Positions 1 through 21,163 of a DNA stretch of 64,000 nt are shown here, in pieces. Position numbers and translations under genes: made by a program. Source of the stretch: Pyrodictiaceae archaeon (GTDB lineage: Archaea; Thermoproteota; Thermoprotei_A; Sulfolobales; Pyrodictiaceae); NCBI GenBank assembly GCA_027036135.1, contig JALVSY010000007.1, forward strand, positions 900,880 through 964,879, written 5' to 3'. The notes beneath the pieces were generated by a model that made no database searches, was not told the origin of the DNA, and saw only the letters and a program-made list of their open reading frames with translations. Numbering within the stretch: position 1 is the stretch's first letter; every line of letters starts with the position of its first letter.

Positions 1-759
1 ACGGTGGGTGGCATCGTTGACTATGTTCTTGGCCCTCCTCATCCACCTAGCGTGGACACGACGAGACCACTTCATGAATCTCCAATGCCTCCCAATCCTC
101 TTCTGCAACCTCTCAGCGAGTTTGCGGAGATGCAGCGCCTTCTTAAACCCCTTAAAGACTATAACGCCTGCCGTCACGATTCTACCAGTACTAGCGTCGA
201 GAACAACGTAGCTGACGTTGTCAAGGTTGACGTCCACACCCATAACAGTTCTCGGCCTCCTCACCTCAACCTCTCTCTCAAGAGCAACATATACCTTGAA
301 GCCACCGTCACGGTAGGATACCAGTAGCTCCTTGGGCTGCCACCCCTCGGCCATGAAGCGCTGGAGCCTGTTCACACCTCTTAGCTTTACCTCTACCCAG
401 CCGCCGTTGAGCGCAGCTATCCTCAGCACCTTTTTCTCCGAGTCCAGCCTGTACTCGTAGGGATGGAGCCTGGCTGTCAGCCTCCTCAATAATGGCTTGG
501 AGCCGCCGTTCCTCCTGGCTGCTTTCACTATCTCTTTGGCCCTCTTGTATATCTCGCTCACGTGGTGTGCGCGGAAGCCCCACTCGCGTAGCTCCCTGTA
601 GAACATCTCGTGGAGCTGCCTAACAGTGGGAACCCTATCCATGCCCCATATCCTATCCACGGCGTACTGGACAGCGTCGCGGTACGCCCTGAGGAAGGCT
701 AACAGGGGCTGGGGATTAGGGGCCACCCCTCCAAGCACAACGGTGGCATGTACCCTCAT
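1..759 (-). CDS. tnpB: TnpB RNA-guided endonuclease, N-terminal part (truncated by window edge)
   Basis: Manual translation from ATG 759: MRVHATVVLGG..LLAFLRAYRDAVQYAVDRIW..RTVMGVDVNLDN (RuvC-I). Open to the window edge, so absent from the ORF track. Confidence 0.88.
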   Translation of the reverse strand, partial: MRVHATVVLGGVAPNPQPLLAFLRAYRDAVQYAVDRIWGMDRVPTVRQLHEMFYRELREWGFRAHHVSEIYKRAKEIVKAARRNGGSKPLLRRLTARLHPYEYRLDSEKKVLRIAALNGGWVEVKLRGVNRLQRFMAEGWQPKELLVSYRDGGFKVYVALEREVEVRRPRTVMGVDVNLDNVSYVVLDASTGRIVTAGVIVFKGFKKALHLRKLAERLQKRIGRHWRFMKWSRRVHARWMRRAKNIVNDATHR

Positions 760-4212: not shown

Positions 4213-4248
4213 CTGCCGGTACATGTACTGTCTTGGGTGGTACAAGGG

Positions 4249-5410: not shown

Positions 5411-7658
5411 CTGTCTTTAGGTCATTACCGCCTATCGTCCTATTACGTCTCCAAGCTATCTCCACAGGCTTTTTGATCTTCATGTACACTGTTTGTCCTA
5501 TGATTGCTCCTGCCTCGGCGCCTGTCCTTATGCGCTGCTCGATGCGCTGCCACTCGATAGGGTGGAGTTCCTTCAGTTTTGCTGGCACCTTGATGCCTGT
5601 TTGCTTCTCAAACGTTATTGAGAACTCTCGTATGAATTGTCTTGCCCTGTTAGACATATATGCGTGTAGTCTGGCTGCTACTGCGCCGCCGAGGGCCGCG
5701 ACCTTTGCTGCTTTGCCGCCCGGGGCCTCCGCTACTGCCTCCTTGATGGCGCCTATCTCGCGCTTGGCTCTCTCTGCTACAGGCCTGACTGGGGCTTTGA
5801 GAGCCTCCTTTGTCGCTTGCCTGACGCGCTGTGTTGCTGGTGGTATCTCCTCTACTTGCGGCTTTTTCTCCAGATCAACACCCATGTTCTTAGCCATCTC
5901 CTCTGCTCGGGATGCTGCTATACTCCTGGCGGCCTCCTCTCCTCGCAGCTCATAGCCGCCCTTGACTGTCCTGGCGTCGGCGCTGGTTCCTGGCCCTGCC
6001 CATGCCTGGCCAGGGCTTGTTGCTGGCCTCATCCACTCGGTCCTGGGTGGTGCTCCTGTTGCTGGGCCCTGCCAGCCCGGCATTGGGCTGATGTGGCGCC
6101 ACTCGCCTGGGGCTACGCCCATGCCTGCCGGCGTTGGGTGTATTGGTGGTCTTAGGTACTCTGTGTGTCCTACTACCTGGCCGGGTGCGGCTAGCATCAT
6201 TGCCTGTGGCCGTGCTGCTAGGCCTAGCCTGGTTGCTGCTAGGGCTCCTAGTCTGCCGTAGATTCCTGCGAAGAGGCCTGCTCCGGGTAGTGGTGCTCCT
6301 ATTAGCCCGGCTATCATGGGTCCCGTGGCGAGCATTGCTAGGGGGAGGGCTACGCCGTAGCCTATGACTTCGAGTGGGGATGCGTTCGCGGGGTTTGCCA
6401 GCGCCCTGGCGCTGAGCCCCGCCATTGCTGCTAGGACGAGGTTCCACGCCATGAGCGCCACGATGACGTTTGTCATGCTCCTCGCTACGTGGCGGGTGCC
6501 GGGGAAGAGCCAGAGCACGGCTATGAGCGGGATTAGGAGGTAGAGGGCTTCTAGGAGAAGGTACTTGAGCAGCGCTATGAGCACGAACCCGGCGAAGCCC
6601 AGTGCCCCGGTCGCCGCCAGGCCCCCGGCCCCGCCGACGGGGAGCGCGGCCGCGAGCGCGGTGAAGCCCAGCAGCATGCTCATCCACGCCATCAGGACCC
6701 CGGGCTGCGCCATAGCTATGCTTATGCTGTTCACGAGCCTGGCAGCCCAGGTGTAGAGGGGTTGTGCGAGGCTGAGCGCCAGCAATACGTAGGCCACGTC
6801 TCTCAGAGCATCCAGCCAGGAGAGGCCTTTCTCGAACTCCCAGAACGCCTTCCAGAGCGCGAGCCCTATCACCGCGTAGCCTAGGAGGAAGACTGCGTAG
6901 CTATGGGTGTCTAGCAGCGGGGGAGCGGTCTCGGGGACGGTGACGAGCATGAGCCCTACCTTCTCGAAAACCCCGCCGGCACCCGTGTGGGCGAGGAGCC
7001 ACACAACAGCGTCGCTGAGCAGAGCAAAGGCCTTCCCCACGGCCTTGGCGGCGTACGTCATTATGCAGCCGGGCCACGAGGAGGGGCTCCAGCCGCAGCT
7101 AGCTCTCAGCTCGCTAAACGCTGCGTCGAGCTCGGAGCCCAGGCTCCTTATAGTGACCCTGCACTCCGCGGAGACCTGGCCCGTGACCCTTATTGTGTAC
7201 TCGCCGTCCTCCCCGTAGCTGTGGCTCGCCACGCAGTAGCCCTGCCCCGTACATGTAGAGGAGGTGTTATCGCCCCAGTCAATACTCGCGCTCACGCTCC
7301 TACCCGGAGCAGCGACCACAACGCTCACGGGGATGTACTTGTAGAACCCAGCCGGGGGACAGAACACCTCAGCCCCGCCACCAGCACCACCAGCCCCGGC
7401 GCCAGCGGCGTAGCCGCTAACCCACGCAACTATTACCGCAACCGTTACCGCCCACGCCCAGCTGCTTTTCGCGATATCTGAGCGGCCTAGCGCGTATGCT
7501 ATCCCGCCTATCATGGTGAGGATTACGGCGAAGGCGTAGCCTAGGCCCCTGAGACCCGTGGCGTTGCTACCGCTGGCCGCGTAGCCTATAGCTGCTAGCG
7601 ATAAGACCAGGTGTAGCTGGAGCAGCGCAGCCACTAGCCAGAGCGCTCTCCGCCTCAC
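5400..7658 (-). CDS. VirB6/CedA-like polytopic membrane protein with N-terminal pilin-like hairpin and PKD domain
   Basis: Likely GTG start at 7658 with signal peptide (ORF track extends to 7853); PKD motif SIDWGDN..SHSYGEDGEYTIRV; many TM helices; P/G/A-rich and charged C-terminal tail; co-oriented with virB4. Confidence 0.7.
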   Translation of the reverse strand: MRRRALWLVAALLQLHLVLSLAAIGYAASGSNATGLRGLGYAFAVILTMIGGIAYALGRSDIAKSSWAWAVTVAVIVAWVSGYAAGAGAGGAGGGAEVFCPPAGFYKYIPVSVVVAAPGRSVSASIDWGDNTSSTCTGQGYCVASHSYGEDGEYTIRVTGQVSAECRVTIRSLGSELDAAFSELRASCGWSPSSWPGCIMTYAAKAVGKAFALLSDAVVWLLAHTGAGGVFEKVGLMLVTVPETAPPLLDTHSYAVFLLGYAVIGLALWKAFWEFEKGLSWLDALRDVAYVLLALSLAQPLYTWAARLVNSISIAMAQPGVLMAWMSMLLGFTALAAALPVGGAGGLAATGALGFAGFVLIALLKYLLLEALYLLIPLIAVLWLFPGTRHVARSMTNVIVALMAWNLVLAAMAGLSARALANPANASPLEVIGYGVALPLAMLATGPMIAGLIGAPLPGAGLFAGIYGRLGALAATRLGLAARPQAMMLAAPGQVVGHTEYLRPPIHPTPAGMGVAPGEWRHISPMPGWQGPATGAPPRTEWMRPATSPGQAWAGPGTSADARTVKGGYELRGEEAARSIAASRAEEMAKNMGVDLEKKPQVEEIPPATQRVRQATKEALKAPVRPVAERAKREIGAIKEAVAEAPGGKAAKVAALGGAVAARLHAYMSNRARQFIREFSITFEKQTGIKVPAKLKELHPIEWQRIEQRIRTGAEAGAIIGQTVYMKIKKPVEIAWRRNRTIGGNDLKTVRL

Positions 7659-7906
7659 CCCGTTACCCCCACTACCTCTAGGCCCCTCCGGGAGAAGCCC
7701 GGAGAAGCCTGGTACGAGGCCACGACCCCGACAGCACCTCATTCCGGAGCCGATATAGACTCCATTGATAATTCCCTTATCGGGGTTATCAATGAATACT
7801 ATGTGGCCGGGTAAAACACGCATGCCTAGAAAGAGGAGAAGCACCCAATTCATGATAGTAACTATATATAGTTTGTCTCACGGTCACTAGAACAGGGAGA
7901 AGTAGC

Positions 7907-8089
7907 GTGAGCAGGGCAGAGGCAAGTGTAAGGGTTTATCGTAGCGTGGAGGAGCTCCCCGAGGTACTGGAGCCAGGCAAGTACATCATAGAGGGCGAGG
8001 AAGTAGAGGTCTACGAGCCCCTTAGCCGAGAGGCAGTTACCGAGATTATTCACTTCTTCCGGAAGCGTCGAGGCCACAGGTTTATCTAA
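7907..8089 (+). CDS. Small acidic protein, putative antitoxin
   Basis: 60 aa, acidic, with a TATA-like box upstream (7862-7870); its 3' end overlaps the RelE-like gene. Confidence 0.5.
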   Translation: MSRAEASVRVYRSVEELPEVLEPGKYIIEGEEVEVYEPLSREAVTEIIHFFRKRRGHRFI

Positions 8090-8414
8090 GGTGTCTCCAC
8101 AGCCTTCGATAGGTCTCCTCGCCTCGTCTATCCGCGGCTATGAAAACGACTTCACACCTAGAGACATCTACCGCGAAGAGGAGTCTCCACCAGACCTTGC
8201 CTAGCCACAGCCGGTAGCGCCGCACAGGGCCGCCATGCCTCGCCACGATAGGTTCTCTCAAGAGTCGCTGAATGGCCTCTGGGTCATTGTTCAACTCCTT
8301 CTTCAGTTCCTCGAGCCACTTCCTAAACGCCTCCAGAAGCCCTCTCTTCCGGAAGACCTTCTCAACAAGAGGACTAGCAACAACCCTCCACTTGCCGCGG
8401 CACTCCTCAAGCAT
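8082..8414 (-). CDS. RelE/ParE-like toxin
   Basis: Basic ~110 aa protein: WRVVASPLVEK...VRRYRLWLGKVWWRLLFAVD...VVFIAADRRGEETY. Confidence 0.6.
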   Translation of the reverse strand: MLEECRGKWRVVASPLVEKVFRKRGLLEAFRKWLEELKKELNNDPEAIQRLLREPIVARHGGPVRRYRLWLGKVWWRLLFAVDVSRCEVVFIAADRRGEETYRRLWRHLR

Positions 8415-8528
8415 TATGAGAGCCCCGAGGAAGAAATGCCATTGCCTCGTATATAAGCATTGAGGTAACACTTTTCACGTCCTCACGGGAAAAAACTGTC
8501 CAATGGATTTATAGGAATACTCGCTGCG

Positions 8529-9890
8529 CTATGGTCCTCTCAGGGGCCACCCGCCGCCCGTGACTATGTATAGTACTGCCAGTAGTGCTAGGATTGAGGC
8601 TGCCAGGCCTAGGTATGTTCTCCGGAGCACTGGTGGCGGCCCCGGGCTCCATGCTAGGGTGAACGTCCCGGTCGCTGTGTTGTTGAAGCTGTCGACGGCT
8701 ACTGCGGTGTATACGCCGGGCACGGCGGGGCACCACGTTGCACTGCCCAGCCCGGTTCTCAGTGCCACAAGCCTACCGTCCTCGTAGACTTTCAGCGCCA
8801 CGCTCTCGCACGCCCCGGCGGAGACCGTAATACAGTAGTCCTTTAGGCTAATGCTTGGCTTCACGTCGTCTTTTACCAGTACTGTCTCGTAGCCAGTCTC
8901 GTTCGCCGGAACTACCTCCCACGACTCGTTGACGACACGGCAGTCGTCGGCTATGTACCTGGCCAGTCTCCAGCCGAATGGCAGCGGCACCGTCAGCGTA
9001 TCGTTGAGGCATGTTCTTGTAGGCTCGGGCTTGTCCTCTATGAAGCATATCCTCGCTCTAAATAAGTGGCTGCTTGTCGGCTTCCTCGGCGGGCCCAGGA
9101 CAAGTCTAACGGTTCCCGAGGCGCTCGGTGAGGGAGGGCCCTCGATAGGTATGCTCTCAGCCGGGGCGCCGTAGCCCACCAGTCTAATAGCCGTAGCGTT
9201 ATCCACGAGCACCGTTAAGTTGTAGAGGAGGAGCATGCCCTCCTCCATGGGCACCGGGGTCTCGTTACCCAGCCGGAGGCCCTGGCCAAGGTTATAGAGA
9301 AGGACACTGGCGTTCACCAGCACAGAGCCGTTGCCGAGCGCCCTGTAGCCAGTAATGTTCAGGGAAACAACCAGTAGTGATGAATTAACCCTCCTTGGGA
9401 TGATTGTCGCTGTAGCTGTCCCCGCCAGGGTCGTGGTCGCAAGATAGCTCTGGGTCACGGTTGTCGTGCTTGTCTCAGTGCAGGTGCCATTATACCATCC
9501 CAGGCATACTGGGTACGAGTAACGGTACCAGGCAGTATAGCTACAGGTAAGCCCCTTCACAAGCTCATAGCTGCCTAGTGGCGCGTCGCAGGGAATCCTG
9601 GTCGTGGATACTAGTACCGTTGATGAGCCCTCCCCGAGGATTATCGGGCCACAGGTTAGGACGGCGGGCGGCTTCGGCCCGTAGCTAGGGTACCAGGGCG
9701 GCGGGCTCACGCCGATCAGCGTGTTCGTGAACGTGTAGAGAGCAGTAATGTTCATGCAGCGATAAACCGCGTTGCGTAGCCCGAACTGGTCGAGGGGACT
9801 AATTATGCTCGAGCCACTGCTACCCGCGTAGACAACGCTGCCTACGAGGGCCAGGAGCGTGGCCATAGCCACGATAGCTCTCATTTTCAC
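8529..9890 (-). CDS. Secreted, membrane-anchored Cys/Thr-rich surface protein with C-terminal Ig-like domain
   Basis: Signal peptide; many N-x-S/T sequons; PGVYTAVAVDSFNN Ig-like strand; C-terminal TM helix. Confidence 0.75.
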   Translation of the reverse strand: MKMRAIVAMATLLALVGSVVYAGSSGSSIISPLDQFGLRNAVYRCMNITALYTFTNTLIGVSPPPWYPSYGPKPPAVLTCGPIILGEGSSTVLVSTTRIPCDAPLGSYELVKGLTCSYTAWYRYSYPVCLGWYNGTCTETSTTTVTQSYLATTTLAGTATATIIPRRVNSSLLVVSLNITGYRALGNGSVLVNASVLLYNLGQGLRLGNETPVPMEEGMLLLYNLTVLVDNATAIRLVGYGAPAESIPIEGPPSPSASGTVRLVLGPPRKPTSSHLFRARICFIEDKPEPTRTCLNDTLTVPLPFGWRLARYIADDCRVVNESWEVVPANETGYETVLVKDDVKPSISLKDYCITVSAGACESVALKVYEDGRLVALRTGLGSATWCPAVPGVYTAVAVDSFNNTATGTFTLAWSPGPPPVLRRTYLGLAASILALLAVLYIVTGGGWPLRGP

Positions 9891-9893
9891 AGG

Positions 9894-11798
9894 TTACCAC
9901 TCTCCGGGCCTCGTCGAGAACACCCTCAGCTCCTCTGGCGTGGGCTGCACGTAGATGCGTAGACGCCAGCCACCAGCGACCCTGAGTATTCCCTGGCCAG
10001 GCTCGGCGTCGAGGAGCTGCTCCTCCTCCGCCTCGCTTAGATTATAGATGGGCTTAACCGCCTCCAGCGATGCCTCGTTCAGGCGTAGTAGAAGCACGGT
10101 GGCCGACTGCTCTAGGATTGTCCTGCCATGCTCGCTTCTCAGCACGTCGTGGGGCCTCTGGGTCGCGAACACGAAGTTAACGCCTTTCTTGCGACCCCTC
10201 CTCGCTATGTCGGCGAACATCAACATCAATGAGGGGTACTGGGCGAACATCCATCCCTCGTCTACTACTAGCAAGGAGTTGCGGAGCTGGGAGGAGACTA
10301 CGAGCGCTAGTAGTGCTCCTACCAGAGCCCTGGCGCGGCGGGACCTGATGCCGGCGAGCGCGTAGACAGCGCCCCTCCCTGTGGGGAGCGGGGGCTCTCC
10401 ACGGTATATCCACGAGTCGGCCTCGGCTGCTTTCAGGTAGTTCTCGAGCCCCGTGGCTCTCTCCTCGGCGAGCCTAGCTGCCTCCTCTAGGCTCTCGGAC
10501 TCGCCTAGAACGTCTACTAGCTCGCCTCGTAGCTCGTCGGGGACGCGGTAGTACTCCTGCACAATGTCCACGGCCTCGTCGAGCCCTATTACCCCCCTCC
10601 TCCACAGCCTGACAGGGTCCAGGCCTAGGCCTCCACGTTCCCCAGCAGCGTCCTTGCTTAGCTCGTAGCCCGCGAGGCCGGTAGCCAAGTACTCCCTAAT
10701 ACCAATGTACTCGGACTCAGGGTCTATGATTATGGTCTTCTGGCCCAGGCCAGCAGCCCACCACCTCCTCACATACACTTTCAGCGTCATGCTCTTACCT
10801 GAACCAGTCTCCCCCAGTACCACCACGTTGTAATTCGGCCTAGCATAGGGGTTGAAGACAACGGGCTCCCCGGTATCCAGGTCGTAGCCGAGATAGAGGC
10901 CGCCAAAGTCGACCAGCTGCTCCTGCACCAGAGGATACAATGCCTGCGCGCTCAGAGTATCGACATAATGGAATACCGGCACCGTCCACTCAAGATTATA
11001 TAATCGTCTCTGGTAGAACCCCGGGCCACTAGCATATTCTACCATCCTCGAGGCTAGGAGCTCCTCGAGGCGCCTGCTGCGCTCCCAGAGCTCCTCCTGG
11101 CTAGAACCCCTAACTACCAACACTATCGCTATCTTCACGAGCCGGGCCTTGCCTCCTAGGAGCTGTTGTAGCTGCTGGAGCTTGTATGCCTCCTGCTCTA
11201 GCTGCCAGGTCGTGGAGCCACGGAGCACTGATTGTAGCCTGAGAAGCCTCTGGTCAATCATCCTCCTCGCTTTAGCGGGCTCCACGGGCTCTATGAGGAA
11301 GTGTATCTCATCGGTAGCATAGATTAGCTCGAGGGGCCACGCCTCGGGCAGGCTGTCGGGCAGCTTGACAACAGTATACGCCCTAGCGTAACCGCCATCC
11401 TCTAGCTCGAGGATGCCGCGGGCTACGCGCCTCACTACAGGCCTGTAAGGCTCCGCTGCTGGCCTTGGCTCGTAGCCGAGCTGCATTAACAAGCCATAAT
11501 CCAGGCCCTCGGCGAAGAATAGGAGCCGGCGAAACTTGAAGCCCTCGATGCTGTCCCATGCTGCATAAATCGAGATACGAGCCTTATCATTGGCAGCGTT
11601 CAATAACGCGGTCCACTTAGATAGGAATCTGTCGCGCTCCTTCTCGGGGAGAGCCGCGAAGGGGTAGCCCTGGACCTGTAAAAGGAGGCTGAGCTCACTG
11701 CTTCTTGGGGCTCTCTTCCTCGCTCTTTGTTTCTCCCTCTGCCCCTGGCTTTGCTTCGACTTTGATAGGCTGGGCACGCTTCTCCCCGCTATAGACAC
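9894..11798 (-). CDS. virB4: VirB4/TraE/CedB-like conjugative ATPase
   Basis: NPY..PNYNVVVLGETGSGKS (Walker A), IIDPESEY, LVVDEGW (Walker B), RRGRKKGV..FATQRP. Confidence 0.9.
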   Translation of the reverse strand: MSIAGRSVPSLSKSKQSQGQREKQRARKRAPRSSELSLLLQVQGYPFAALPEKERDRFLSKWTALLNAANDKARISIYAAWDSIEGFKFRRLLFFAEGLDYGLLMQLGYEPRPAAEPYRPVVRRVARGILELEDGGYARAYTVVKLPDSLPEAWPLELIYATDEIHFLIEPVEPAKARRMIDQRLLRLQSVLRGSTTWQLEQEAYKLQQLQQLLGGKARLVKIAIVLVVRGSSQEELWERSRRLEELLASRMVEYASGPGFYQRRLYNLEWTVPVFHYVDTLSAQALYPLVQEQLVDFGGLYLGYDLDTGEPVVFNPYARPNYNVVVLGETGSGKSMTLKVYVRRWWAAGLGQKTIIIDPESEYIGIREYLATGLAGYELSKDAAGERGGLGLDPVRLWRRGVIGLDEAVDIVQEYYRVPDELRGELVDVLGESESLEEAARLAEERATGLENYLKAAEADSWIYRGEPPLPTGRGAVYALAGIRSRRARALVGALLALVVSSQLRNSLLVVDEGWMFAQYPSLMLMFADIARRGRKKGVNFVFATQRPHDVLRSEHGRTILEQSATVLLLRLNEASLEAVKPIYNLSEAEEEQLLDAEPGQGILRVAGGWRLRIYVQPTPEELRVFSTRPGEW

Positions 11799-12252
11799 GC
11801 AGCTCTCGGAGAACCCTGTCGCCGAGCATTAGCCTGACAGTATGCTCCCCGGGCTCTAGGCCAGCTATCTCTACCCTGGCTAAGCCGTTGTCGACGCGGA
11901 GCCTATCATGTTCTTCTCCATCAACCTCTACGACTAGCTCCCCGGCCTCAGGCAAGGTAATGTATACCATTATGCTGCCCAGCGGGGCCCAGTACACTGG
12001 CTCGGTGGCTGGCTCGCGCTTCGCTAAGAGCTTCGAGATGGGAGGCTTAATCGGCAGAGCACCGAGCACAATCCCGGCAGCGAGAATAGCTGCTCTGGCC
12101 CAGAGCGGTAGCGATAGCTGCAGCGCTACGAGGAGTCCTACTATACTGAATAATGCCAGCCTTATCCTAACCGGGAACCCAGCGGCATAGAGGAGGGGCT
12201 CCTCGAGCCAGCCCAGGTCTGGTATGGAAAAAACCGAGACTAGGCGGGGCAT
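11695..12252 (-). CDS. Two-TM membrane protein (VirB3/PrgI-like position) with C-terminal Ig-like domain
   Basis: Two hydrophobic helices followed by GLEPGEHTVRL; lies between the pilin gene and virB4. Confidence 0.55.
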   Translation of the reverse strand: MPRLVSVFSIPDLGWLEEPLLYAAGFPVRIRLALFSIVGLLVALQLSLPLWARAAILAAGIVLGALPIKPPISKLLAKREPATEPVYWAPLGSIMVYITLPEAGELVVEVDGEEHDRLRVDNGLARVEIAGLEPGEHTVRLMLGDRVLRELRVYSGEKRAQPIKVEAKPGAEGETKSEEESPKKQ

Positions 12253-12262
12253 GCTCTCCTCC

Positions 12263-12562
12263 TCATGCTATGAACTGGCCTATAATCCACAACACCACGG
12301 ATATAGCTATTGCAGCCATTACTGCCCTACCGAGCCACTCTGGTCCACGGCCAAACGCGTAGTTGATCACCCCCACGAACGCCGCTATAACTATTATCGC
12401 GTAAGCTATCTTCTTCAGGTAGTTGGCCACTTGGTCGGCCAGGCTCGCCGCCTTCTTGAGGGGGTTTGTAGCGCTGGTTTTGTTGGTCTGGGCGTGCGCA
12501 GCTGTGGCTAGGAGAAGCAGGGTAGTTATCACTATTGTGAAAAAGACGTAGTGGTGCTCCAA
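12263..12562 (-). CDS. VirB2/TrbC-like (CedA1/TedC-like) conjugative pilin
   Basis: 99 aa; signal peptide ending AHA, amphipathic helix, then two hydrophobic helices around YAFGRG. Confidence 0.7.
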   Translation of the reverse strand: MEHHYVFFTIVITTLLLLATAAHAQTNKTSATNPLKKAASLADQVANYLKKIAYAIIVIAAFVGVINYAFGRGPEWLGRAVMAAIAISVVLWIIGQFIA

Positions 12563-12575
12563 GGGGTTTTCACCT

Positions 12576-12995
12576 CTAGGACGTGAACGTCGCCTGGAAC
12601 TCTGAGCCGTCGCTGAGAGTCACTATTACTATGTGTTGTCCGCTGCCAAGATTTGGTAAGGTAACTATCTTATGAAGCTCCTGGCCCGGTTTGAGGAGAT
12701 AGCCGCTGGCACCGATGCCTAGCTGCGAGCCAACATTCGTGCCGTCTATGGTTACTTTTGTTATGTTTGCTGCCGCGCCACCGACGTTCCTTATGCTTAG
12801 CTCGATATACGCCGTGTTACCGACATAGTCCACGGAGGCTGTTATCATTAGCTGGGGCTTCTTCGCTACCGCGCTGGCACTGGCGCTTACATACTTGTAG
12901 ATAACATAGCCGATGGCTATTGTCGCTGCTAGGAGGATGGCCGTTGCGATGAGGGGGCTTATTCCGCGAAGCCCTCTGCGTTGCATTGTCTCCAC
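12576..12995 (-). CDS. Archaeal type IV pilin (probable major pilin)
   Basis: Class III signal peptide RRGLRG/ISPLIATAILLAATIAIG; IRNVGG motif. Confidence 0.9.
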   Translation of the reverse strand: METMQRRGLRGISPLIATAILLAATIAIGYVIYKYVSASASAVAKKPQLMITASVDYVGNTAYIELSIRNVGGAAANITKVTIDGTNVGSQLGIGASGYLLKPGQELHKIVTLPNLGSGQHIVIVTLSDGSEFQATFTS

Positions 12996-13201
12996 CCTTG
13001 TTCTCCACTAGGCTGCTAAGGAGTGGGAGAGCGCATGCCTGTGGGGAGGGTTTGGCCTTGTTGCCGTGGCTGTGGTAATCTGTGAAGGCGTTGTGGCTGT
13101 GATTCTTGGCGTTGTTTTTGTGGGTTGGTCGGTGTTGCTGGGCGTTACCCGGTGCATGGTGGAAAGCTATAAATATGGGTGTGTAGTGGATGGTGCAGGC
13201 C

Positions 13202-14074
13202 TCAATACCTGCCTCCATGGGCTGGGTATATGGGCTCCCTCACTGGTTTCTCCCGGAGCCTCCAGGCACCCTCCCCGATGCGCTCCACTATGCCTAGCGT
13301 CTCCAGCTTCTTTAGTACCTGAACCGCGCTCGGATAGTGTAGGGCAAGTATTCTCGCAAAATCATGGGCCGAGAAGGGTTGGTAGTCGAAGCTCGTCCTT
13401 AGGAGGTTGTAGAGTCTCTCCAGGTCGAAGGTAACCGTTATCCTCCCGTTCATACCCCTCATCCTCCGAGTAGAATCGATGAGGGGGAGAAGGAGCAGCT
13501 CTGCGGGGGCGAGCCTCCCGAGCCTGAGTCTGTGAGCCCTTGTAGCGGAGGGGATGTAGCCCCTCAGAGCCACTATGAAGAAGCCCGGGTAGCTCGCGAC
13601 GCTGCTCGCGTGGACCCGTATTCTTCCCTCGCCTCTCAGCAGGACGTGGTGGTTCTCGAGGCCTAGTAGGCAGCTGCTCCATATCCTTATCGCTCTATAG
13701 AAGCTTGCTCTCGAGGAGCCTGTGAGCTCCCATGCCTGCTGGGCTACTGGTCTCCCGAGGAGTCCTCTCGCGTGCTCCACGAGCCATGCCCAATAGGCGG
13801 CTGCCGCCGCCAGGGCCCGTTCATCGGCGCCGCGGCCATTGTTTACGCGGCACTCGCGCGCGTCTAGGAGCCACGCGGTGGAGTAGGCTAGCTCCGTGGC
13901 TTCCCGGTAACGCTTCACCCCGAGCTCCTCGAGCGCCGAGACCAGGAGTCTCCGGTAGTGCTCCGCCTCCTCGTCTACGCGTATGCGGCTGCGAAGCTCC
14001 TCGAGCAACAGTATGTCGAGGACGAGCTGCGCTCCCTCCCGCTGCTCGCCGAGGCTGTAAAGACTGGCAGGCAA
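13202..14074 (-). CDS. Putative regulator: TFIIB/cyclin-like helical segment plus C-terminal wHTH
   Basis: GRGADERALAAAAAYWAW resembles the TFB repeat (GR...AAA.LY.A); FSAHDFARIL..AVQVLKKLETLGIVERIGEGAWRL is wHTH-like. Confidence 0.55.
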   Translation of the reverse strand: MPASLYSLGEQREGAQLVLDILLLEELRSRIRVDEEAEHYRRLLVSALEELGVKRYREATELAYSTAWLLDARECRVNNGRGADERALAAAAAYWAWLVEHARGLLGRPVAQQAWELTGSSRASFYRAIRIWSSCLLGLENHHVLLRGEGRIRVHASSVASYPGFFIVALRGYIPSATRAHRLRLGRLAPAELLLLPLIDSTRRMRGMNGRITVTFDLERLYNLLRTSFDYQPFSAHDFARILALHYPSAVQVLKKLETLGIVERIGEGAWRLREKPVREPIYPAHGGRY

Positions 14075-14167
14075 TGGCGGCAGCCCTCTTATTCTGGACA
14101 GGAGCGTAACACCTTACAGCGACTCCGCTTATTCATTTCCACGAGAAATGCATGGAGCGCTGAAAGA

Positions 14168-16135
14168 CTAGAAGACGTTGAGCAACATTATTGTCGCCAG
14201 CGTGGAGAGCACGGCAGCCAAGGGCCACAACGTGTCCCTCACCGTCAGGCTTATCGCCTTGGCGGCGAGGAAGCCCATCACCGCGGCAGCTATGAGCGCT
14301 AGCCAGGCTATGAACCCGGCGACGTTGCCGGAGAGCGTGAGCGGCAACGACTCGAGCACCTGCGTCGTCGAGCCCATGATTCGCTGCAGCCCAGCAGCCA
14401 TCACCGCCACTATCGGGGGGAACCCGATGGCGAGGAAGCCCAGCAGCCTAAGCCTCATACTAGCAGCCCTGTGTGCACTGACGTGCGCGTATACGAGGTC
14501 ATAGAGCCGCTCGAGTGCCAGAGGGTCGCTGGCCCCCTGCGAGCCAACGATGTTGACTACCGTGTACAGGGTGTACTTTGCTAGCCAGGAGCGTGCCCTA
14601 ATACCGCCTGACCTGGCCGCCGCCCTCGCAGCAGCTGCCAGGGGCTCCTCTACGCTGCCAACGGCGTGCTCCAGTAGCTGGGATACAGGCTTATCGGACA
14701 TGCTCCTCGTGTACTCTATCACCATTCTTAGTAGTGGCAGTAGCTCCCGCTCCTCTTTGCTCACTAGGCGCTTCTGTGCTCTGAAGGCCACGCCGTAGAC
14801 GCCTAGCCCGGCTGCAGCCGAGAACCCAGCGGACATTATCGCTGGTAGCCCGAGGACCGTGCATAGGAGGGCGGCTGCGCTTGCAGCCACCACGGCGGCT
14901 ATGACTGCCTCGGCGTCCCTGTATTTCTCCCTGAGCCGGGGCTGGCTACCAGCGAGTAAGGAGTAGCCTAGGGGCGCAGCCAGGATTATTGCTAGGGCTG
15001 CTAACCCAGCGCCCCTACCGCCGAGGAATGCCGAGAACATGACAAATATCAGGGTGGTCGCCAATAAGCCCATCAAGCCAGTGCCGAGGGCTACTCCGTT
15101 CTCCGCGTACGCGGCTATCCTGGCCCTTAGCTCGTCGGTCTCAGCGCGCAAGGTGTCGCTGAGAAAAGCTGCCACGTCGCCGCCGCTATCTCTTATCGCC
15201 AAGTAGTAGGCGTAGAACCTGCGCAGCCTACGGCTAGGATGCTTGTTAGCGAGTTCCTCGGGGCTCTTACCAGCATCAGCACCTATGGCTGGTAATAGTT
15301 TACTCTTACGGGCCTCTTCGAGCGCATCCTCGAGAGAACCTGTACCCGAGCGCTCCATGAGCCAGGCCCACAGGCTGAGATATGGGAGCTCCTCCTCCGC
15401 CGCCCTCGCTCTTTCCCTAGCTTTTGCCTCGAGGTGTGCTCTTAGGAGTGGCAGGGATAGAGGCGGCAATAGCGCTGATAGTAGTAGCGCCTTGCTCCCA
15501 GCAAGCACCGCCAGGCCAGCCAGCACAGCGGACGCGGCTAGACTACCTAGTAATATTATAGATACTAGTGCTGCGGTCTCGAACCTAGTCCACCTATAGC
15601 CAGCCTTCTCAACCGCCTCGGGGACCCCGAGCCGAGCTGCAACCCTATCCCCGAGGGGTATGGCGCCTAGGACCACGGGTACAACGTATCTTAGTACTCC
15701 TCGGGGCTCTTCGGGTCTCTCTCTGAGCCCCTTCCTAAGCATGTAGAGCATCCACGCGCCGGGGATTATCGGCAGTGCACCTATCAGCGCTAGTACTGGG
15801 TTCCTCTCTAGCTGGAGCGTGGACGAGACAACCCCCAGCACCATCATGGCTATAGAGGCTAGGAGTACTAGTCTCCTAGAGGGATAGAGCGCCAAGCGGT
15901 AGAGAAAACCAGTTGCCAGGTCTAGGGCAAATAACGCGAAGAGGAAAACACCTAGGCCGAGCACAGTGGGCGTGACACGGACCTCAGGCTCCGCTAGGCC
16001 CAGCAGCGTTCTCCACGGAACCATCCCGAGGATTATTAGGAGCGTTGACGCTATCGCCACCGCTAACTGGTAGCCCGTTATTATCCTCCTTGCCTTCTGC
16101 GTCTTTGCCTGAGCCGCCTCCATTACCCTCCCCAC
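14168..16135 (-). CDS. TadC/FlaJ/GspF-like type IV pilus platform protein
   Basis: Multi-TM protein with two cytoplasmic domains (EEELPY..SGGDVAAFL; ERELLPLLR); directly downstream of the assembly ATPase; start may be ATG 16123. Confidence 0.85.
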   Translation of the reverse strand: MGRVMEAAQAKTQKARRIITGYQLAVAIASTLLIILGMVPWRTLLGLAEPEVRVTPTVLGLGVFLFALFALDLATGFLYRLALYPSRRLVLLASIAMMVLGVVSSTLQLERNPVLALIGALPIIPGAWMLYMLRKGLRERPEEPRGVLRYVVPVVLGAIPLGDRVAARLGVPEAVEKAGYRWTRFETAALVSIILLGSLAASAVLAGLAVLAGSKALLLSALLPPLSLPLLRAHLEAKARERARAAEEELPYLSLWAWLMERSGTGSLEDALEEARKSKLLPAIGADAGKSPEELANKHPSRRLRRFYAYYLAIRDSGGDVAAFLSDTLRAETDELRARIAAYAENGVALGTGLMGLLATTLIFVMFSAFLGGRGAGLAALAIILAAPLGYSLLAGSQPRLREKYRDAEAVIAAVVAASAAALLCTVLGLPAIMSAGFSAAAGLGVYGVAFRAQKRLVSKEERELLPLLRMVIEYTRSMSDKPVSQLLEHAVGSVEEPLAAAARAAARSGGIRARSWLAKYTLYTVVNIVGSQGASDPLALERLYDLVYAHVSAHRAASMRLRLLGFLAIGFPPIVAVMAAGLQRIMGSTTQVLESLPLTLSGNVAGFIAWLALIAAAVMGFLAAKAISLTVRDTLWPLAAVLSTLATIMLLNVF

Positions 16136-17609
16136 TATGTCTGCCTGCCTGGGAGAAGGAGACGCGCCGAGGCTCGGCCACCTTTACGAGTTCGTCTCTC
16201 TCGGGGTCGTAGCGGTAGAGGAGGCGTTCGCCACCGCTCGGCAGAACCTCATAGATGGCCACGACCCTGCGAACGGTTCTCTCGCCCAGCCTTACCTTGT
16301 CGAGGACAACAACAGACCAGAGAAGTACCAGCATATCCTCCCTTACGCCTAGCTTCAATAGTCTCAGCTTCAGCTCCTCCCAGTCCCGGGCATGGAACGT
16401 AGCAGCGCTAGCCTCCCCGAGCGCTGCTACCTCGAAGAGGTCCAGTATCTCTGGTCCACGGGCCTCCGTTATCGCTGTGAATTGTCCCCGGAGCCTCAGC
16501 GCGACCCGTATGAGGTCCTGGTACGTTACCTCGGTCTGCCTACTCGCGGCGAGGCTCCTCGCCCTCCTCACTCTCAGGCTTATGAAGCGTGGATGCCTCG
16601 GCCTAAGCTCCGGGACATCCTCTATGGCTACGAGCTTCCAGTCACCGGGGAGCTTCTCCATCAAGGCGTTTAGCAGCGTGGTCTTGCCCGTGCCCTGGGG
16701 GCCTATAATGAACACCATTCCGCGGCTCAGCAGCACTCTCAGCAAGTACTCGGCTGCCTCCCCGCTCAGCATCTTATCCGCTACCAGGTCCTCGAGGCTC
16801 AGCGGCTTCTCTGGGTGCTTCCTAACCGATAGACTCGTGGCACTAGCTATCGTGCCGAGAACCATTGTGACGCGGTGACCGTTCAGCTCCGCCTCGGCGA
16901 TAGGGAATGCTGGAGATATAGCTGTCCCAGCGGCGGAGGCCAAGCGCTGCAGGTATTCCCGGAACTCATACTCGGGGGGCGCAACTATGCTGGTAGGGAT
17001 GTACTCTCTTCCCGGCATCTTCCTGTGAATAATATCTACGGGTCTCCCGGCCACAGCACTTATCTCCTCAACATCCGGGTCGAGTACTAGCGGATAGAGG
17101 AACCCCCAGGGCGAGAGAGACTTCTCCACGTAGTAGCGGAAGGCCTCTGGCTGCCGCTGCATAATCTCCGAGACACCCAGCTTCTCTGCAGCCTCGCCAG
17201 CCTTCTCTGGCGGGAGACCGTGCTTCTCCAAGTACTCTATGACTATGCGGAGCGCCTTCTCGGCGTCAGGGTCTAAGCGGGGCTCTACGACCTCGTACCT
17301 ATCCTCGCCCACTACTATGGTCAGCACGCCGACGCCGTACTCGAGGACCCGGTGCTCGCTAATACTCCCCGCCTGGTCCTTGTCTCCCTCGCCGAACTGT
17401 CCCCCAGACTCTGCAGCTCCAGCACCCTCCCCACCCGCCTCAGGCTCCTCGGAAGCCCCATGGATTCTCTGAGCCTCTTCATCCTCGAGCAGGTCAAGCA
17501 ACAGATCCTCTTCTATCCCACGATGCTCTGTCTCCTCCTCGCCGCTCGGCTCCTTCACCAGCTCCTCGGGTATCTCCTCCCCGTTATCCCCCGCCATGGG
17601 CTCCATCAC
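15984..17609 (-). CDS. Type II/IV secretion (TadA/FlaI/UpsE-like) pilus assembly ATPase
   Basis: DPDVEEIS, GPQGTGKT (Walker A), IEDVPEL, ALRLR..EARG.E, TFHA. Confidence 0.92.
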   Translation of the reverse strand: MMEPMAGDNGEEIPEELVKEPSGEEETEHRGIEEDLLLDLLEDEEAQRIHGASEEPEAGGEGAGAAESGGQFGEGDKDQAGSISEHRVLEYGVGVLTIVVGEDRYEVVEPRLDPDAEKALRIVIEYLEKHGLPPEKAGEAAEKLGVSEIMQRQPEAFRYYVEKSLSPWGFLYPLVLDPDVEEISAVAGRPVDIIHRKMPGREYIPTSIVAPPEYEFREYLQRLASAAGTAISPAFPIAEAELNGHRVTMVLGTIASATSLSVRKHPEKPLSLEDLVADKMLSGEAAEYLLRVLLSRGMVFIIGPQGTGKTTLLNALMEKLPGDWKLVAIEDVPELRPRHPRFISLRVRRARSLAASRQTEVTYQDLIRVALRLRGQFTAITEARGPEILDLFEVAALGEASAATFHARDWEELKLRLLKLGVREDMLVLLWSVVVLDKVRLGERTVRRVVAIYEVLPSGGERLLYRYDPERDELVKVAEPRRVSFSQAGRHSGEGNGGGSGKDAEGKEDNNGLPVSGGDSVNAPNNPRDGSVENAAGPSGA

Positions 17610-17935
17610 TTACACAGCCATGGAGGGGTTACGAGAATATAGGTTCCCTGAGGGACTATGCTAGGGCATGGCTGGAGTGTGTTACTTGTGATGTTCGGCA
17701 CTATCCAGCACTGGAAGCTGCCCACGGTGCGCCAGTACGTCAGGTTCACTGTTATTGGAACGTAGCAGACGACGTGGGTCTCGTTGATTTCTACAACCTT
17801 CACGGGCCGTGGGGGCTCTGGCTTAGGGGTGTGGGCTTGTATCCACTTGTATAGCATTGGCGCTATCGCCACGGCTGCGGCGAGGAGGATTAGGGCTGCG
17901 TATAGCTCGGCTATTGCGCGCATAGGCCTAGGCAT
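17606..17935 (-). CDS. Small type IV prepilin-like protein
   Basis: MPRPMRA/IAELYAALILLAAAVAIA class III-like signal; AGGGG RBS; stop overlaps the ATPase start (GTGA). Confidence 0.75.
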   Translation of the reverse strand: MPRPMRAIAELYAALILLAAAVAIAPMLYKWIQAHTPKPEPPRPVKVVEINETHVVCYVPITVNLTYWRTVGSFQCWIVPNITSNTLQPCPSIVPQGTYILVTPPWLCK

Positions 17936-18005
17936 TATCTCTACCCCTCTTCTCCCGGGTTTCCCGGTAAGAGTGGAGGAGCTGGGAGAAGAGGGGCGAG
18001 CAACC

Positions 18006-19256
18006 ATGCGCGGCATAGGTACCTTGTTCGCTGGCTTGGTGGTACTGCTCGCTATTACGGCACTAACCGTGTACATGGTTCACGCGTACCTGGTGGCGCA
18101 GCAATCCCTGCGCGAGCAGCAACTGCTCTACGAGAAAGCAAGATACATAGCCGAGCACGCGAACATAACTGGCAGCACCATCAGCTTGCCGGAGCCAGCC
18201 GACCTAATAATAGTAGACCCCAGCGGTGTACCCCACGTAGCCAAAGACGTGAAAACGCTTACACTACCATGGAGCCCTGCAAACCTGAAAATCTACGTGG
18301 TGAAACGGGGCCGAGTACGGATAGCAGCCGCCGACCCCGTGGCCAGGGCCGCGGCCTTGGCCTCGGTCGCTGCAGCCCCGCTACAACCACTAGGCAGCTC
18401 TGCAGGCAGCATAGCTGGCTGCGAGTGGTACCTAGACCCATTCATCTACAACATAACTAGGAACCCAGCCGAGTATAGGGGCTATACATTGTACAAGGAG
18501 ATGCCGCAGATAGGTTACCTCTTCTACACAAGCCCTAGGTATCTTTGCCAAATGGATCCTATTAGGTATCCTAACTGGGCTATGTGGAAGTATCCTCTTC
18601 ACATCCTAGAGATCTTAGGAATTAATACTACAAGGTTGCTGAGCGACTGTCCCCAAATATATGTTTGGGATATAGCCATTGTGCCATACATAGGTGTCAT
18701 CGTCCGGGGGATACCACCAAGCATGCTGTACAACTATATGGAGCACTATTATGGCGATTTCTACCTAATATTCTACAATGGTACATGGAGAGAGATAGGA
18801 AGCGGTGTATACTGGGATTACACCATCCAAATAGGAAGTACACGTATAACGATAAAGAAGGTATACCTAAACCCGCGGTTCGCACCCATAGGTGACTGGA
18901 AGGTATTCATCAATGTGTCTTCACCCATTATTAGCGTTAACTATTCGAGAACAGAGACCCTTATCCCAGGCCAGAACGAGCTATGGATAAGCGCTAAGCT
19001 AGGTAACGGGCTAATACTAGCTGCCGAGAAGTGGTATGCCTATTACTTCGCAGAAACCTACAAAGGATTCCCAGCAGGGTGGGGAGATTACTGCTCGCAG
19101 CTGGAGCCCTGTGCCAAGGGATTTGGCATATACCGCAAGCTAAGTGCCTATGCAAAAGGAAGTGATTATGAATATCCATTACAAGCTGTTCTACTACTTA
19201 GGCATAGTGCTTACTCGTCATCACCAAGCATAGCATATATCTATAAGCACTGCTAG
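18006..19256 (+). CDS. Large minor pilin/adhesin with class III-like signal and Tyr/Trp-rich C-terminal domain
   Basis: MRG/IGTLFAGLVVLLAITALTVY after a GAGGGG RBS; the ORF-track start at 17784 overlaps the opposite-strand pilin. Confidence 0.72.
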   Translation: MRGIGTLFAGLVVLLAITALTVYMVHAYLVAQQSLREQQLLYEKARYIAEHANITGSTISLPEPADLIIVDPSGVPHVAKDVKTLTLPWSPANLKIYVVKRGRVRIAAADPVARAAALASVAAAPLQPLGSSAGSIAGCEWYLDPFIYNITRNPAEYRGYTLYKEMPQIGYLFYTSPRYLCQMDPIRYPNWAMWKYPLHILEILGINTTRLLSDCPQIYVWDIAIVPYIGVIVRGIPPSMLYNYMEHYYGDFYLIFYNGTWREIGSGVYWDYTIQIGSTRITIKKVYLNPRFAPIGDWKVFINVSSPIISVNYSRTETLIPGQNELWISAKLGNGLILAAEKWYAYYFAETYKGFPAGWGDYCSQLEPCAKGFGIYRKLSAYAKGSDYEYPLQAVLLLRHSAYSSSPSIAYIYKHC

Positions 19257-19266
19257 TCTTTTCTTT
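19257..19266 (+). terminator. T-rich candidate terminator after the adhesin gene
   Basis: TCTTTTCTTT immediately after the stop codon. Confidence 0.4.
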
Positions 19267-19433
19267 GAACCAGTCCGCGTCCCCTACTCCTTCTGCCCAG
19301 TTACGCTGCTCACTTCTCCCAGGGTGGGGCCTCGGCCTAGGAAAGTACTGACATTAGTCAAAGAAGTCGCTGACGCCTCGGCCTTCCACGCCCCGTCTCC
19401 CGGTCAGCCTTTTCCTAGACGGAGGGATAGAGT

Positions 19434-19739
19434 GTGGGCGAGTGGGTTCTATGCAGGATATTCTTCCGGGGAGAGAAAACACTAGAGATATGCAATAAGC
19501 TACTAGACGAGCTAGCAGAGAAAGGCTACATACACATCCGTAGAGAAGACCCAGAGAAAAGCATCAAGTACCACGTAGCCAAGAGGCTACGAGAACTAGG
19601 CATACTCATGCACCGAACAATAACCAGTTGCGGTGCAGACAAAATATACCGCATATACGTGGTAGACCGCAAGAGAATGGCTAAGCTAAGACTAGAATTC
19701 GACCAACTAGACCGCCCATGGCCGATATGCATTGAGTGA
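19434..19739 (+). CDS. Small basic putative DNA-binding (wHTH-like) protein next to the integrase
   Basis: 101 aa; YHVAKRLRELGIL..KIYRIYVV; GGAGGG RBS. Confidence 0.6.
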   Translation: MGEWVLCRIFFRGEKTLEICNKLLDELAEKGYIHIRREDPEKSIKYHVAKRLRELGILMHRTITSCGADKIYRIYVVDRKRMAKLRLEFDQLDRPWPICIE

Positions 19740-19919
19740 CTAGATTATTATAATATTTAGGTATTCTCCACCCAGGTATTTTCCCAACAATCACTACGAA
19801 TAGAGTCTATACAGGGCTATAGACAAGCTTCTCTATACCGATGACTTATATGAGAGAAGGCAATTACCAATAATCATAACACGCACCAAGGGCAACTCAA
19901 CAGCGACAAGGATACCACC

Positions 19920-20795
19920 ATGAGAGCCAAGAGCCAAGCAATAACTATTAGGGAAGTTGACTGGAGAAGTTTCGCTATATACCTCGAGGGGCTTGGGCTC
20001 TCGAGGAAGTGGAGGGAGGATCTGCTAAGGTACGCTAGGCGCTATGGATGGCTCGTGTACGAGGACCATGTTAGGCTCCGTGTGGAGCTGAGGAGATTAA
20101 GCCCCCATATGCGCAACAAGGTGATGAATGCACTATCGCACTTAGCGAGGTTCCTTGAAGAGCACGGCGAGGAGGGGCTCTACGAGGAGCTGAGGAAACG
20201 GTTCCGGAGAGCACGGCTAGCATGGAGCAAGGGGCGGCCCCGGCTACGGGTTCTCGCTAGCCTCGAGGACATGCTAGAGCCTGTAACTCATGCAGCGTCT
20301 ATGCTCAAGCCAAGGCACTATAGGGTGTTCGCGGCGTTCCTCTTAGCCACTGGGCTCCGGCCCGAGGAGGCTGCAAAAGCGTGGCGAAGCTACTGGCGCG
20401 TGAGGATGCGCTACCGGGACATGGTGCTACTGGACCTAGAGGCAGTAGGACTCGACAGAGACACTAAGAGAGCCATAGTAGCCATGGTTCACCCGCTTGC
20501 GGACGCTGAGGTGCCGGAGAAGCCCAGGATAAGCCTAGCATTACTCCGGAGGAAGTGGAACAAGGCCGCAGAAGAAGCTGCCGGGAAGAGAATAGAGCTT
20601 TACACCATGAGACGGCTCCATGCAACACTCTTACTACACGCCGGGGTACCGGAGCACATAGTGGACCTGCTACAAGGCCGCCCAGGCTCCACAATCCTGC
20701 GACAAAACTACATCATGTACACGCTCTACGAGTACTGGCACAGCTACATCAAAGCCCTCCAGAACCCCCTCTCAATAATTCTAGGCAAAGACTAG
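19920..20795 (+). CDS. int: Tyrosine recombinase/integrase
   Basis: ATGLRPEEA (Arg I), TKR (Lys), YTMRRLHAT (Arg II), LLQGR, RQNY (Tyr); adjacent to the att site. Confidence 0.93.
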   Translation: MRAKSQAITIREVDWRSFAIYLEGLGLSRKWREDLLRYARRYGWLVYEDHVRLRVELRRLSPHMRNKVMNALSHLARFLEEHGEEGLYEELRKRFRRARLAWSKGRPRLRVLASLEDMLEPVTHAASMLKPRHYRVFAAFLLATGLRPEEAAKAWRSYWRVRMRYRDMVLLDLEAVGLDRDTKRAIVAMVHPLADAEVPEKPRISLALLRRKWNKAAEEAAGKRIELYTMRRLHATLLLHAGVPEHIVDLLQGRPGSTILRQNYIMYTLYEYWHSYIKALQNPLSIILGKD

Positions 20796-20799
20796 TCTT

Positions 20800-20848
20800 C
20801 GGGCTGTTAACCCGGTGGTCGGTGGTTCGAATCCACCCGGCGGCGCCA
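20800..20848 (+). repeat. att site: duplicated 3' half of tRNA-Asn(GTT)
   Basis: CGGGCTGTTAACCCGGTGGTCGGTGGTTCGAATCCACCCGGCGGCGCCA covers the anticodon arm to CCA; no 5' acceptor strand or D arm upstream. Confidence 0.9.
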
Positions 20849-21024
20849 CACTCACATTCCTGTAAGGAGTTTCTCGGCATAGAGGTTCTCCTTCAAAACC
20901 ACTATGGTACCTAACTATTGTAGTCTCGCTCATCCACTTCGTAGTACTATTTGTTACATGGTTTTTACAAGATAACCGAGAAGTTTTGGCTTCGAGGAAT
21001 ACAAGAATAGAAATGTTATTAACA

Positions 21025-21163
21025 TGGTGGGCCCGGGGGGATTTGAACCCCCGACCGCCGGGTCTCTCCCTCTCATCTAGGGCTCTTCGACAGACCCAGC
21101 GCCTGGACCGGATCCCGCAAGGGGCCTGGAGCCCGGCGCTCTGCCTGGCTGAGCTACGGGCCC
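21025..21163 (-). tRNA. tRNA-Trp(CCA) with 62-nt intron at position 37/38 (21064-21125)
   Basis: GGGCCCGTAGCTCAGCCAGGCAGAGCGCCGGGCTCCAG / intron / ACCCGGCGGTCGGGGGTTCAAATCCCCCCGGGCCCACCA. Confidence 0.96.

Follow-up and report, generated by a model that had tools for sequence, protein, structure and literature searches.

Do short inverted motifs around a set of archaeal pilus genes mark DNA that is flipped, or do they serve the genes that they precede? The question is raised by positions 16149 to 19322 of a 64,000-nucleotide (nt) stretch of a Pyrodictiaceae archaeon (assembly GCA_027036135.1, contig JALVSY010000007.1; hereafter, the window). Its initial annotation described two pilus gene cassettes, one with pilin and secretion ATPase genes and one with an adhesin-like gene, each bounded by inverted CYGGGAGAAG motifs, and proposed an archaeal shufflon or phase switch. 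These genes belong to a 35.4-kb element integrated in tRNA-Asn, of which the window covers the right 21 kb; window coordinates are used throughout, negative values lie left of the window start, and G000 denotes the host genome. Here, we find that the motif looks like a directional cis-element of this element family, pointing at the gene it precedes, and we propose that it is probably an element-specific operator or promoter site for a sequence-specific DNA-binding protein that would coordinate the pilus and transfer genes. A literature search, which did not cover supplements, returned no paper on this element or motif.

Six exact copies of CYGGGAGAAG occur in the window, at 7688(+), 16149(+), 17949(-), 17982(+), 19313(-), and 34034(+), whereas 0.24 are expected from dinucleotide shuffles, 0 of 100 of which reached six. 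A near-copy, CCCGGAGAAG, is present at 7698; another, CCGGGAGACG, lies at 19394(-) and is conserved in relatives; and a further exact box is found outside the window at -4916, facing a putative open reading frame (ORF) of 85 amino acids (aa). The four sites of the supposed cassettes and the tandem copy at 7688 to 7707 are located where they had been reported, but that list, made by eye, lacked 34034(+), the near-copy at 19394(-), and the copy at -4916. Motif copy number by itself is unexceptional. The genome-wide count that had been suggested as a check gave 48 copies versus 19 for the reversed control, and the 35.4-kb element has six versus 0.77 expected by length. Yet the same element holds 61 canonical 10-mers at four or more copies, the commonest being codon driven (for example, CTCGAGGAG), and as many as 355 patterns with a single degenerate position occur there six times or more. 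What goes beyond chance is the position, the orientation, and the conservation of the motif.

Read on the opposite strand, the motif becomes a box, C[GT]TCTCCC[AG]G, and every copy in the element read in this way is directed toward a downstream gene (Table 1). The box is followed by 14 to 16 nt, often ending in (C)TAG, then by a G-rich Shine-Dalgarno (SD)-like run (for example, GGAGGG or GGGGAGG), and then by the start codon. The distance from box to start is 25 to 31 nt, or 42 to 47 nt for the pilin and adhesin-like genes, and a box stands ahead of at least seven units in the element. In host genes, starts are preceded by a G-rich peak at -8 to -14, and TATA peaks at no fixed distance from them; the G-run after the box is therefore best read as an SD site. 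Between the divergent pilin and adhesin-like genes, the centres of the two boxes lie 33 bp from each other, and the boxes belong to the 13-bp perfect inverted repeat GGGAGAAGAGGGG, 17944 to 17956(-) and 17984 to 17996(+), that the initial annotation had recognized; each arm leads to a G-rich run and the start codon of one of the two genes. As also described there, no A/T-rich, TATA-like run was seen by eye in the 70 bp between the two starts.

Related elements keep the boxes in place although the flanking sequence differs. The relatives comprise a member of another genus (G019), a more distant one (G015), two contigs of G021, and a member of another family (G095). G019 has boxes at the matching places before the TraG-like, 102/112-aa, membrane-protein, UpsF-like, pilin, adhesin-like, and 101-aa genes; its homologue of the 752-aa membrane protein, whose gene had initially been labelled virB6, is preceded by CGTCTCCCGG 28 nt upstream of the ATG. 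G015 has boxes before the UpsF-like, pilin, adhesin-like, and 101-aa genes, 26 to 31 nt from the start. The adhesin-like box is 42 nt from the start in G019 and 31 nt in G015, the pilin box 46 and 31 nt, respectively, and the box of the 101-aa gene 30 to 31 nt in both; a distant pilin homologue in G095 carries a box 27 nt upstream of its ATG. The pilin and adhesin-like boxes of G019 have a spacing identical to that in G000 (23 bp), while the spacer sequence is different. In G015, these two boxes form a perfect palindrome, CCGGGAGACG-CG-CGTCTCCCGG, the form expected of a dimer-binding operator.

For the UpsF-like gene, the box is found 25 to 26 nt upstream of the start at 7/7 loci, namely, G000, G019, G015, the two G021 contigs, and two metagenome contigs. 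It falls within the overlapping ATPase gene, where its translation is F-S-Q for G000 and V-S-P for G015, at differing places of the ATPase alignment, and it therefore follows the downstream start rather than the ATPase protein. The two added boxes came from a search of metagenome contigs that yielded 16 loci, two of them close (L052, 76%; L053, 43%) and both too short for the pilin/adhesin-like intergenic region. Genome contigs searched with the ATPase gave a distant 27% match only, and those searched with the 101-aa alignment gave no match, as did the search of viral contigs.

The layout was scored where both an SD-like run and the start of an ORF (80 aa or longer) lay 20 to 50 nt downstream in the direction of the box. 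It is present at 14 of the 19 exact boxes of the three elements (G000, G019, and G015) versus 2 of 19 read in reverse, and at 2.5% of 20,000 random positions; the nominal binomial probability, 4e-19, overstates the case, since the three elements are relatives. Outside the element, only 1 of the 62 exact boxes in the host genome has this layout. Matches to a strict composite pattern number three in G000, all inside the element, three in the G019 element plus one elsewhere, and two in the G015 element; G004 and G021 contain none, and the reversed control gave 0 in all five genomes. The additional G019 match of box, TAG, and G-run (G019:C1:2181476-2181509) lies far from the element and may represent either a second related element or chance. 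The box thus shows several properties expected of a regulon motif: constrained distance and orientation, conservation with diverged flanks, and confinement to the element.

Table 1. Boxes, genes, and other features of the element (window coordinates unless a contig is named; strand in parentheses)
Feature	Position	Box	Start codon	Box to start (nt)	Remarks
Intact tRNA-Asn(GTT)	G000:C7:886317-886392				35 kb upstream of the right attachment site
TraG-like gene		-4647 (+), one mismatch	TTG	29	
102-aa ORF		-927 (+), one mismatch	GTG	31	
TnpB gene	-395..759 (-)				Beside the IS607 transposase gene
IS607 serine-recombinase transposase	792-1454 (-)				214.8 bits (cut-off, 110)
MarR/TrmB-like protein, 595 aa	2174-3961				Candidate DNA-binding protein
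Ribbon-helix-helix protein	4237-4647				Candidate DNA-binding protein
752-aa membrane protein		Tandem, 7688..7707 (-): CTTCTCCGGG then CTTCTCCCGG on the minus strand	GTG 7658 (probable)	29 (proximal box)	
VirB4-like ATPase	9894-11798				NCBIfam 2.4e-31, below cut-off
TrbC/VirB2-type pilin, 99 aa	12263-12562 (-)				34.3 bits (cut-off, 27.9)
UpsA-like pilin	12576-12995				NCBIfam UpsA, 52 bits (cut-off, 130)
290-aa protein	13202-14074				Candidate DNA-binding protein; weak Pfam MarR_2 match
UpsF/TadC-like polytopic platform protein, 651 aa	14168..16123 (-)	CTTCTCCCAG, 16149..16158 (-), within the 3' end of the ATPase gene, encoding F-S-Q	ATG 16123	25	NCBIfam UpsF 3e-22, 79 bits (cut-off, 400); Pfam T2SSF 9e-5
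Secretion ATPase, archaeal type IV pilus/TadA/FlaI kind	15984..17609 (-)				Pfam T2SSE 4e-20
Pilin-like protein, 109 aa	17606..17935 (-)	CTTCTCCCAG, 17982..17991 (-)	ATG 17935	46	Hydrophobic N terminus; second in-frame ATG at 17923
Divergent control region	17944..17996				Two 13-bp inverted arms; 23 bp between the 10-bp boxes
Adhesin-like protein (putative label), 416 aa	18006..19256 (+)	CTTCTCCCGG, 17949..17958 (+)	ATG 18006	47	N-terminal 111 aa conserved; pilin-like signal MRG/IGTLFAGLVV
Extra exact box		CTTCTCCCAG, 19313..19322 (+)			CTAG 14 nt downstream, no ORF; not conserved in G019/G015
101-aa conserved protein	19434..19739 (+)	CGTCTCCCGG, 19394..19403 (+), conserved	GTG 19434	30	84% (G015) and 70% (G019) identity; family of 6 proteins; candidate DNA-binding protein whose own gene has a box
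Tyrosine integrase, SSV-type	19920..20795 (+)				Right end of the element; Pfam PF16795 2.7e-7, 31.1 bits (cut-off, 27)
Right attachment site	20800..20851 (+)				52-nt direct repeat of the tRNA-Asn(GTT) 3' end

Under site-specific inversion, a recombinase that uses the boxes for crossover would flip the pilin-ATPase and adhesin-like segments. In its favour, the orientation of the four copies does alternate over 3.2 kb, there is a tyrosine integrase at a distance of 600 bp, the element also carries a serine recombinase, and the C terminus of the adhesin-like protein varies between relatives. We nonetheless find this explanation scarcely credible. Contigs of four runs from three studies (X1 to X4; two runs may be the source sample), placed on 14500 to 21000, contain no rearranged joints, although rare variants may be lost in contigs, and none of the 18 loose contig ends listed lies at a box (10 further ends stand beyond these). 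Instead, the sites are bridged in the reference arrangement: one X1 contig spans 15733 to 20829 without a difference and bridges all four; X3 contigs spanning 15707 to 19074 and 19129 to 20829 and those of X2 bridge 16149, the central pair, and 19313; and X4 bridges the central pair and 19313, with only 15 nt beyond 16149. The relatives, whose comparison had been proposed as a check, have a fixed, identical orientation with the boxes kept. G019 is collinear with window positions 5467 to 18346 (~72% identity), and G015 has an unchanged order, with the ATPase and pilin genes on one strand and the adhesin-like, 101-aa, and integrase genes on the other. The copies share 10 bp only (13 bp for the central pair, 17949/17982), their flanks do not align, and a long-repeat search found no inverted repeats longer than the 13-bp arms around the cassettes. 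Partial adhesin ORFs that could serve as alternative 3' segments are absent in either orientation, the gap between the adhesin-like stop and the next gene measuring only 177 nt, and the adhesin-like gene varies at 18346 to 18356, not at a box. Thus, the site arms, alternative 3' ends, and coexisting arrangements of a shufflon are all missing from these data. Nor does the locus resemble a fimS-type promoter switch, since the sole intergenic inverted pair encloses 23 bp and both genes keep their own-side box. As for the enzymes, the integrase probably has its own site in the 52-nt tRNA-Asn repeat, which bears no likeness to the motif, and the serine recombinase is an IS607-family transposase with a TnpB neighbour. 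The hypothetical recombinant ends of the ATPase given in the initial annotation (FSRVSR and FSQGGASA, each then a stop) were read correctly from the sequence. Boxes also precede genes outside any inversion model, and 19313 is not conserved. The cassettes appear to be bounded by inverted motifs because each box points at its own gene and the genes diverge: 16149 is the UpsF-like box, 17982 belongs to pilin-ATPase, 17949 to the adhesin-like gene, and 19313 is an extra copy, so the two cassettes come down to gene-start boxes. A tempting claim of an archaeal shufflon is thereby removed, and a testable object takes its place: a short, directional, conserved box at seven or more gene starts in a DNA-transfer element of hyperthermophilic vent archaea. 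Two other origins for the box deserve mention. The copies could simply reflect the purine-rich codons of an element that is rich in G+C, and repeated 10-mers are indeed common there, the top ones codon driven, with 16149 in coding sequence and 19313 not conserved; but the orientation rule, the fixed spacing, the conserved noncoding positions, and the absence of the layout from the rest of the genome make this extremely improbable. Chance is refuted for the box set as a whole, while the single copies at 19313 and 34034 may be due to it. Iteron-like sites for replication, partition, or transfer-origin proteins could account for the tandem copies with a 10-bp period at 7688 to 7707 and in the G019 intergenic region, as well as for the inverted pairs. 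This seems very unlikely for boxes that are unclustered, one per gene start over ~24 kb, with an orientation that tracks the genes.

The choice then lies between a signal read in DNA and one acting in RNA. The initial annotation had named both operator sites, which come close to the explanation we favour, and pairing between mRNA ends that would mask the SD. The long-range form of this pairing, between 5' and 3' ends, fails, its 3' site at 19313 not being conserved; a local form survives, in which the transcribed box pairs with the SD-like G-run 14 to 16 nt downstream and masks the ribosome-binding site, and we regard it as possible but unlikely. In the pilin/adhesin-like region, the box would pair with the whole 13-bp opposite arm; in each case, protein, temperature, or upstream translation would open the hairpin. 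The core of the box, UCUCCC, can base-pair with GGGAG(A/G), and minimum-energy folds pair box with SD in the UpsF-like leaders of the three elements and in those of the pilin and adhesin-like genes of G000 and G019. These leaders have z scores of -0.75 to -5.0 versus mononucleotide shuffles, with several hairpins persisting at 85°C, and for the box within the coding sequence of the ATPase, a translation signal internal to that gene would be reasonable. Conversely, the leaders of the 101-aa gene (z scores of -0.45 to +1.2) have no box-SD pairing, and those of the 102/112-aa ORFs reach only -0.41 and -0.48. The box sequence is constant across unrelated leaders, whereas a hairpin model predicts covariation; the G015 boxes, palindromic and 2 bp apart, are unable to mask either SD; and helices of 5 to 7 bp are weak for hydrothermal vent organisms (growth temperature being inferred from the run labels). 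We return to a DNA-binding protein as the probable reader of the box, because the box is kept in unrelated upstream regions, is palindromic in G015, and keeps its spacing even where the spacer differs. Such a protein, either an element-encoded regulator or a promoter-specificity factor, would recognize the box as DNA and turn the pilus and transfer genes on or off as a set; at the divergent pilin/adhesin-like region, where the two boxes are three helical turns apart, one bound complex could control both genes. Four candidate proteins are included in Table 1. Several points weigh against this proposal. Family searches detect no DNA-binding domain in the 101-aa protein. No TATA-like sequence is found at a constant distance from the boxes, so that the box is not placeable relative to a basal promoter, and no single promoter geometry fits both the 25- to 31-nt distances and the 42- to 47-nt ones (pilin and adhesin-like genes of G000 and G019). 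Partial complementarity between the box and the SD-like run behind it makes a role at the RNA level possible. The degenerate box definition was set after the data had been inspected, and the kinship of the three elements makes the statistics overstate their independence. Finally, across 325 genomes of the order, a looser composite pattern has scattered matches in 95, three or four in some of them; matches to its reversed control are also common, and the pattern is not diagnostic. We speculate, as a doubtful extension, that this family of archaeal integrative conjugative elements could have a promoter class of its own, TATA-less and with the box as its core, which an element-encoded specificity factor would read. 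If true, the pilus and transfer genes would form one regulon, expressed without regard to the promoter rules of the host, in different host genera. As a regulon motif, the box offers a handle for regulator search, for the prediction of transcription units, and for the recognition of related elements.

Some of these features have counterparts in known systems. The R64/IncI shufflon uses the Rci recombinase and sfx sites (~19 bp, with a conserved core and recombinase-binding arms) to generate PilV adhesin variants. The present locus resembles it as a conjugative element with a type IV pilus module, a pilin-like protein with a variable C terminus, and inverted repeats near a tyrosine recombinase. 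Unlike the shufflon, it has no alternative 3' segments, extended sites, or rearranged contigs, its orientation is fixed in relatives, and its recombinase probably serves integration at tRNA-Asn. Archaeal recombinase-driven inversion that changes surface or tail proteins is known from the haloarchaeal virus phiCh1 (Int1), but inversion appears in no data here. Mobile elements may also have regulons, phage and plasmid repressor operators being repeated before each transcription unit. Similarly, the short box recurs ahead of numerous units within a single element and not at host genes, and in the divergent region its copies make up inverted pairs or a palindrome; the box differs in being G+C rich and directional, 14 to 16 nt upstream of an SD, with no archaeal TATA box/B recognition element at a fixed distance and with a binding protein that is putative. 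Archaeal tyrosine recombinases are covered in one published text, where Rci and phiCh1 inversion are cited (PMC8371274). Ups and Ced act together in DNA exchange, according to another that deals with these pili and with conjugative elements of archaea (PMC9905601). The element shares with the Ups/Ced/Ted systems of Crenarchaeota a UpsF-like platform, a UpsA-like pilin, a type IV pilus ATPase, a VirB4/CedB-like ATPase, and a VirB2-like pilin. Here, however, the genes are together on an integrated element with a TraG/VirD4-like protein and an integrase, and the NCBIfam Ups/Ced scores are far below the cut-offs.

The adhesin-like gene is itself variable. Its first 111 residues are 58% identical to those of the G019 homologue, with nothing detectable beyond, and the C-terminal ~300 residues (18346 to 19256) are unrelated between relatives. 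The G+C content drops within the gene from ~0.55 to 0.43 (0.43 to 0.46 in the variable part), and contigs of runs X1 and X2 track the window to 18356 and then diverge. Hence, this presumed recognition protein varies from element to element because its C-terminal part is replaced, starting away from any box, and not by programmed inversion. The point of divergence adjoins a G+C-rich palindrome at 18337 to 18366. Downstream of the gene, the noncoding segment from 19250 to 19436 is conserved in three elements, with the blocks TCTTTTCTTTGAAC, GTCAAAGA, and GCTGACGCC. The consensus fold of this segment comprises 55 pairs, of which 10 are changed on both sides, with a covariation term of only -0.21 for three sequences; a long helix joins ~19331-19347 to 19404-19419, and an outer helix extends to the SD. 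An Rfam scan of 1 to 26000 gave no match in the range of 16149 to 19322.

The element that carries the boxes forms an island with a G+C content of 0.57 versus 0.50 for the genome. Its integrase and tRNA attachment repeats, conjugation ATPases, and VirB2-type pilin indicate, at the level of sequence, an integrative conjugative element. Loose contig ends at 20800 and 20851 were considered as a possible empty integration site and rejected, as they match the other copy of the attachment site (X2 at 20800; ends at 20851) or a different tRNA 5' half (X1 at 20800). The TraG/VirD4-like protein contains TrwB/TraG domains (7.8e-11), and the conjugative-type pilin occurs alongside type IV pilin-like proteins. 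By their scores, below the curated cut-offs, the proteins matching Ups and VirB4 families are homologous relatives, not equivalogs.

Among the pilus proteins, the secretion ATPase matches BasE, FlaI, and TadA of NCBIfam at 1e-39 to 7e-42, all under the curated cut-offs. Its ORF does continue past the 16149 site, as the initial annotation stated, for 55 codons that encode a low-complexity tail of ~55 aa, and the G019 homologue and both G021 contigs have a similar tail. The ATPase and UpsF-like genes thereby overlap by 140 nt (15984 to 16123), the UpsF-like start being the one indicated by comparison of boxes and starts; in G015, which lacks the tail, the overlap is a few bases. The 109-aa pilin has homologues of up to 68% identity (G019), and neither it nor the adhesin-like protein belongs to any family found in Pfam or NCBIfam. 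The 101-aa protein, whose named homologues lead to Pyrodictium strains, likewise has no significant match in these two collections; the idea that it is a winged-helix protein was dropped, the fold model from a three-row alignment being unusable (mean predicted local distance difference test score [pLDDT], 51.8).

An IS607-family insertion sequence occupies -395 to 1454 of the element (G000:C7:900484-902333) and, judging from its transposase and TnpB genes, is an insertion sequence and not an invertase. The low-G+C segment at 2000 to 4000 (0.43 to 0.45) carries the 595-aa MarR/TrmB/Rrf2-like protein, which may be cargo or a regulator. At the left end of the element (-14396 to -13450), just inside the left attachment site, a word of 17 nt or more, GGGGCACAGGAAATGAG, occurs three times, at spacings of 464 and 477 nt. 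Just outside the right end, Rfam gives a 136-nt tRNA match at 21028 to 21163(-) (52.5 bits), not reported by ARAGORN, which is presumably an intron-bearing tRNA.

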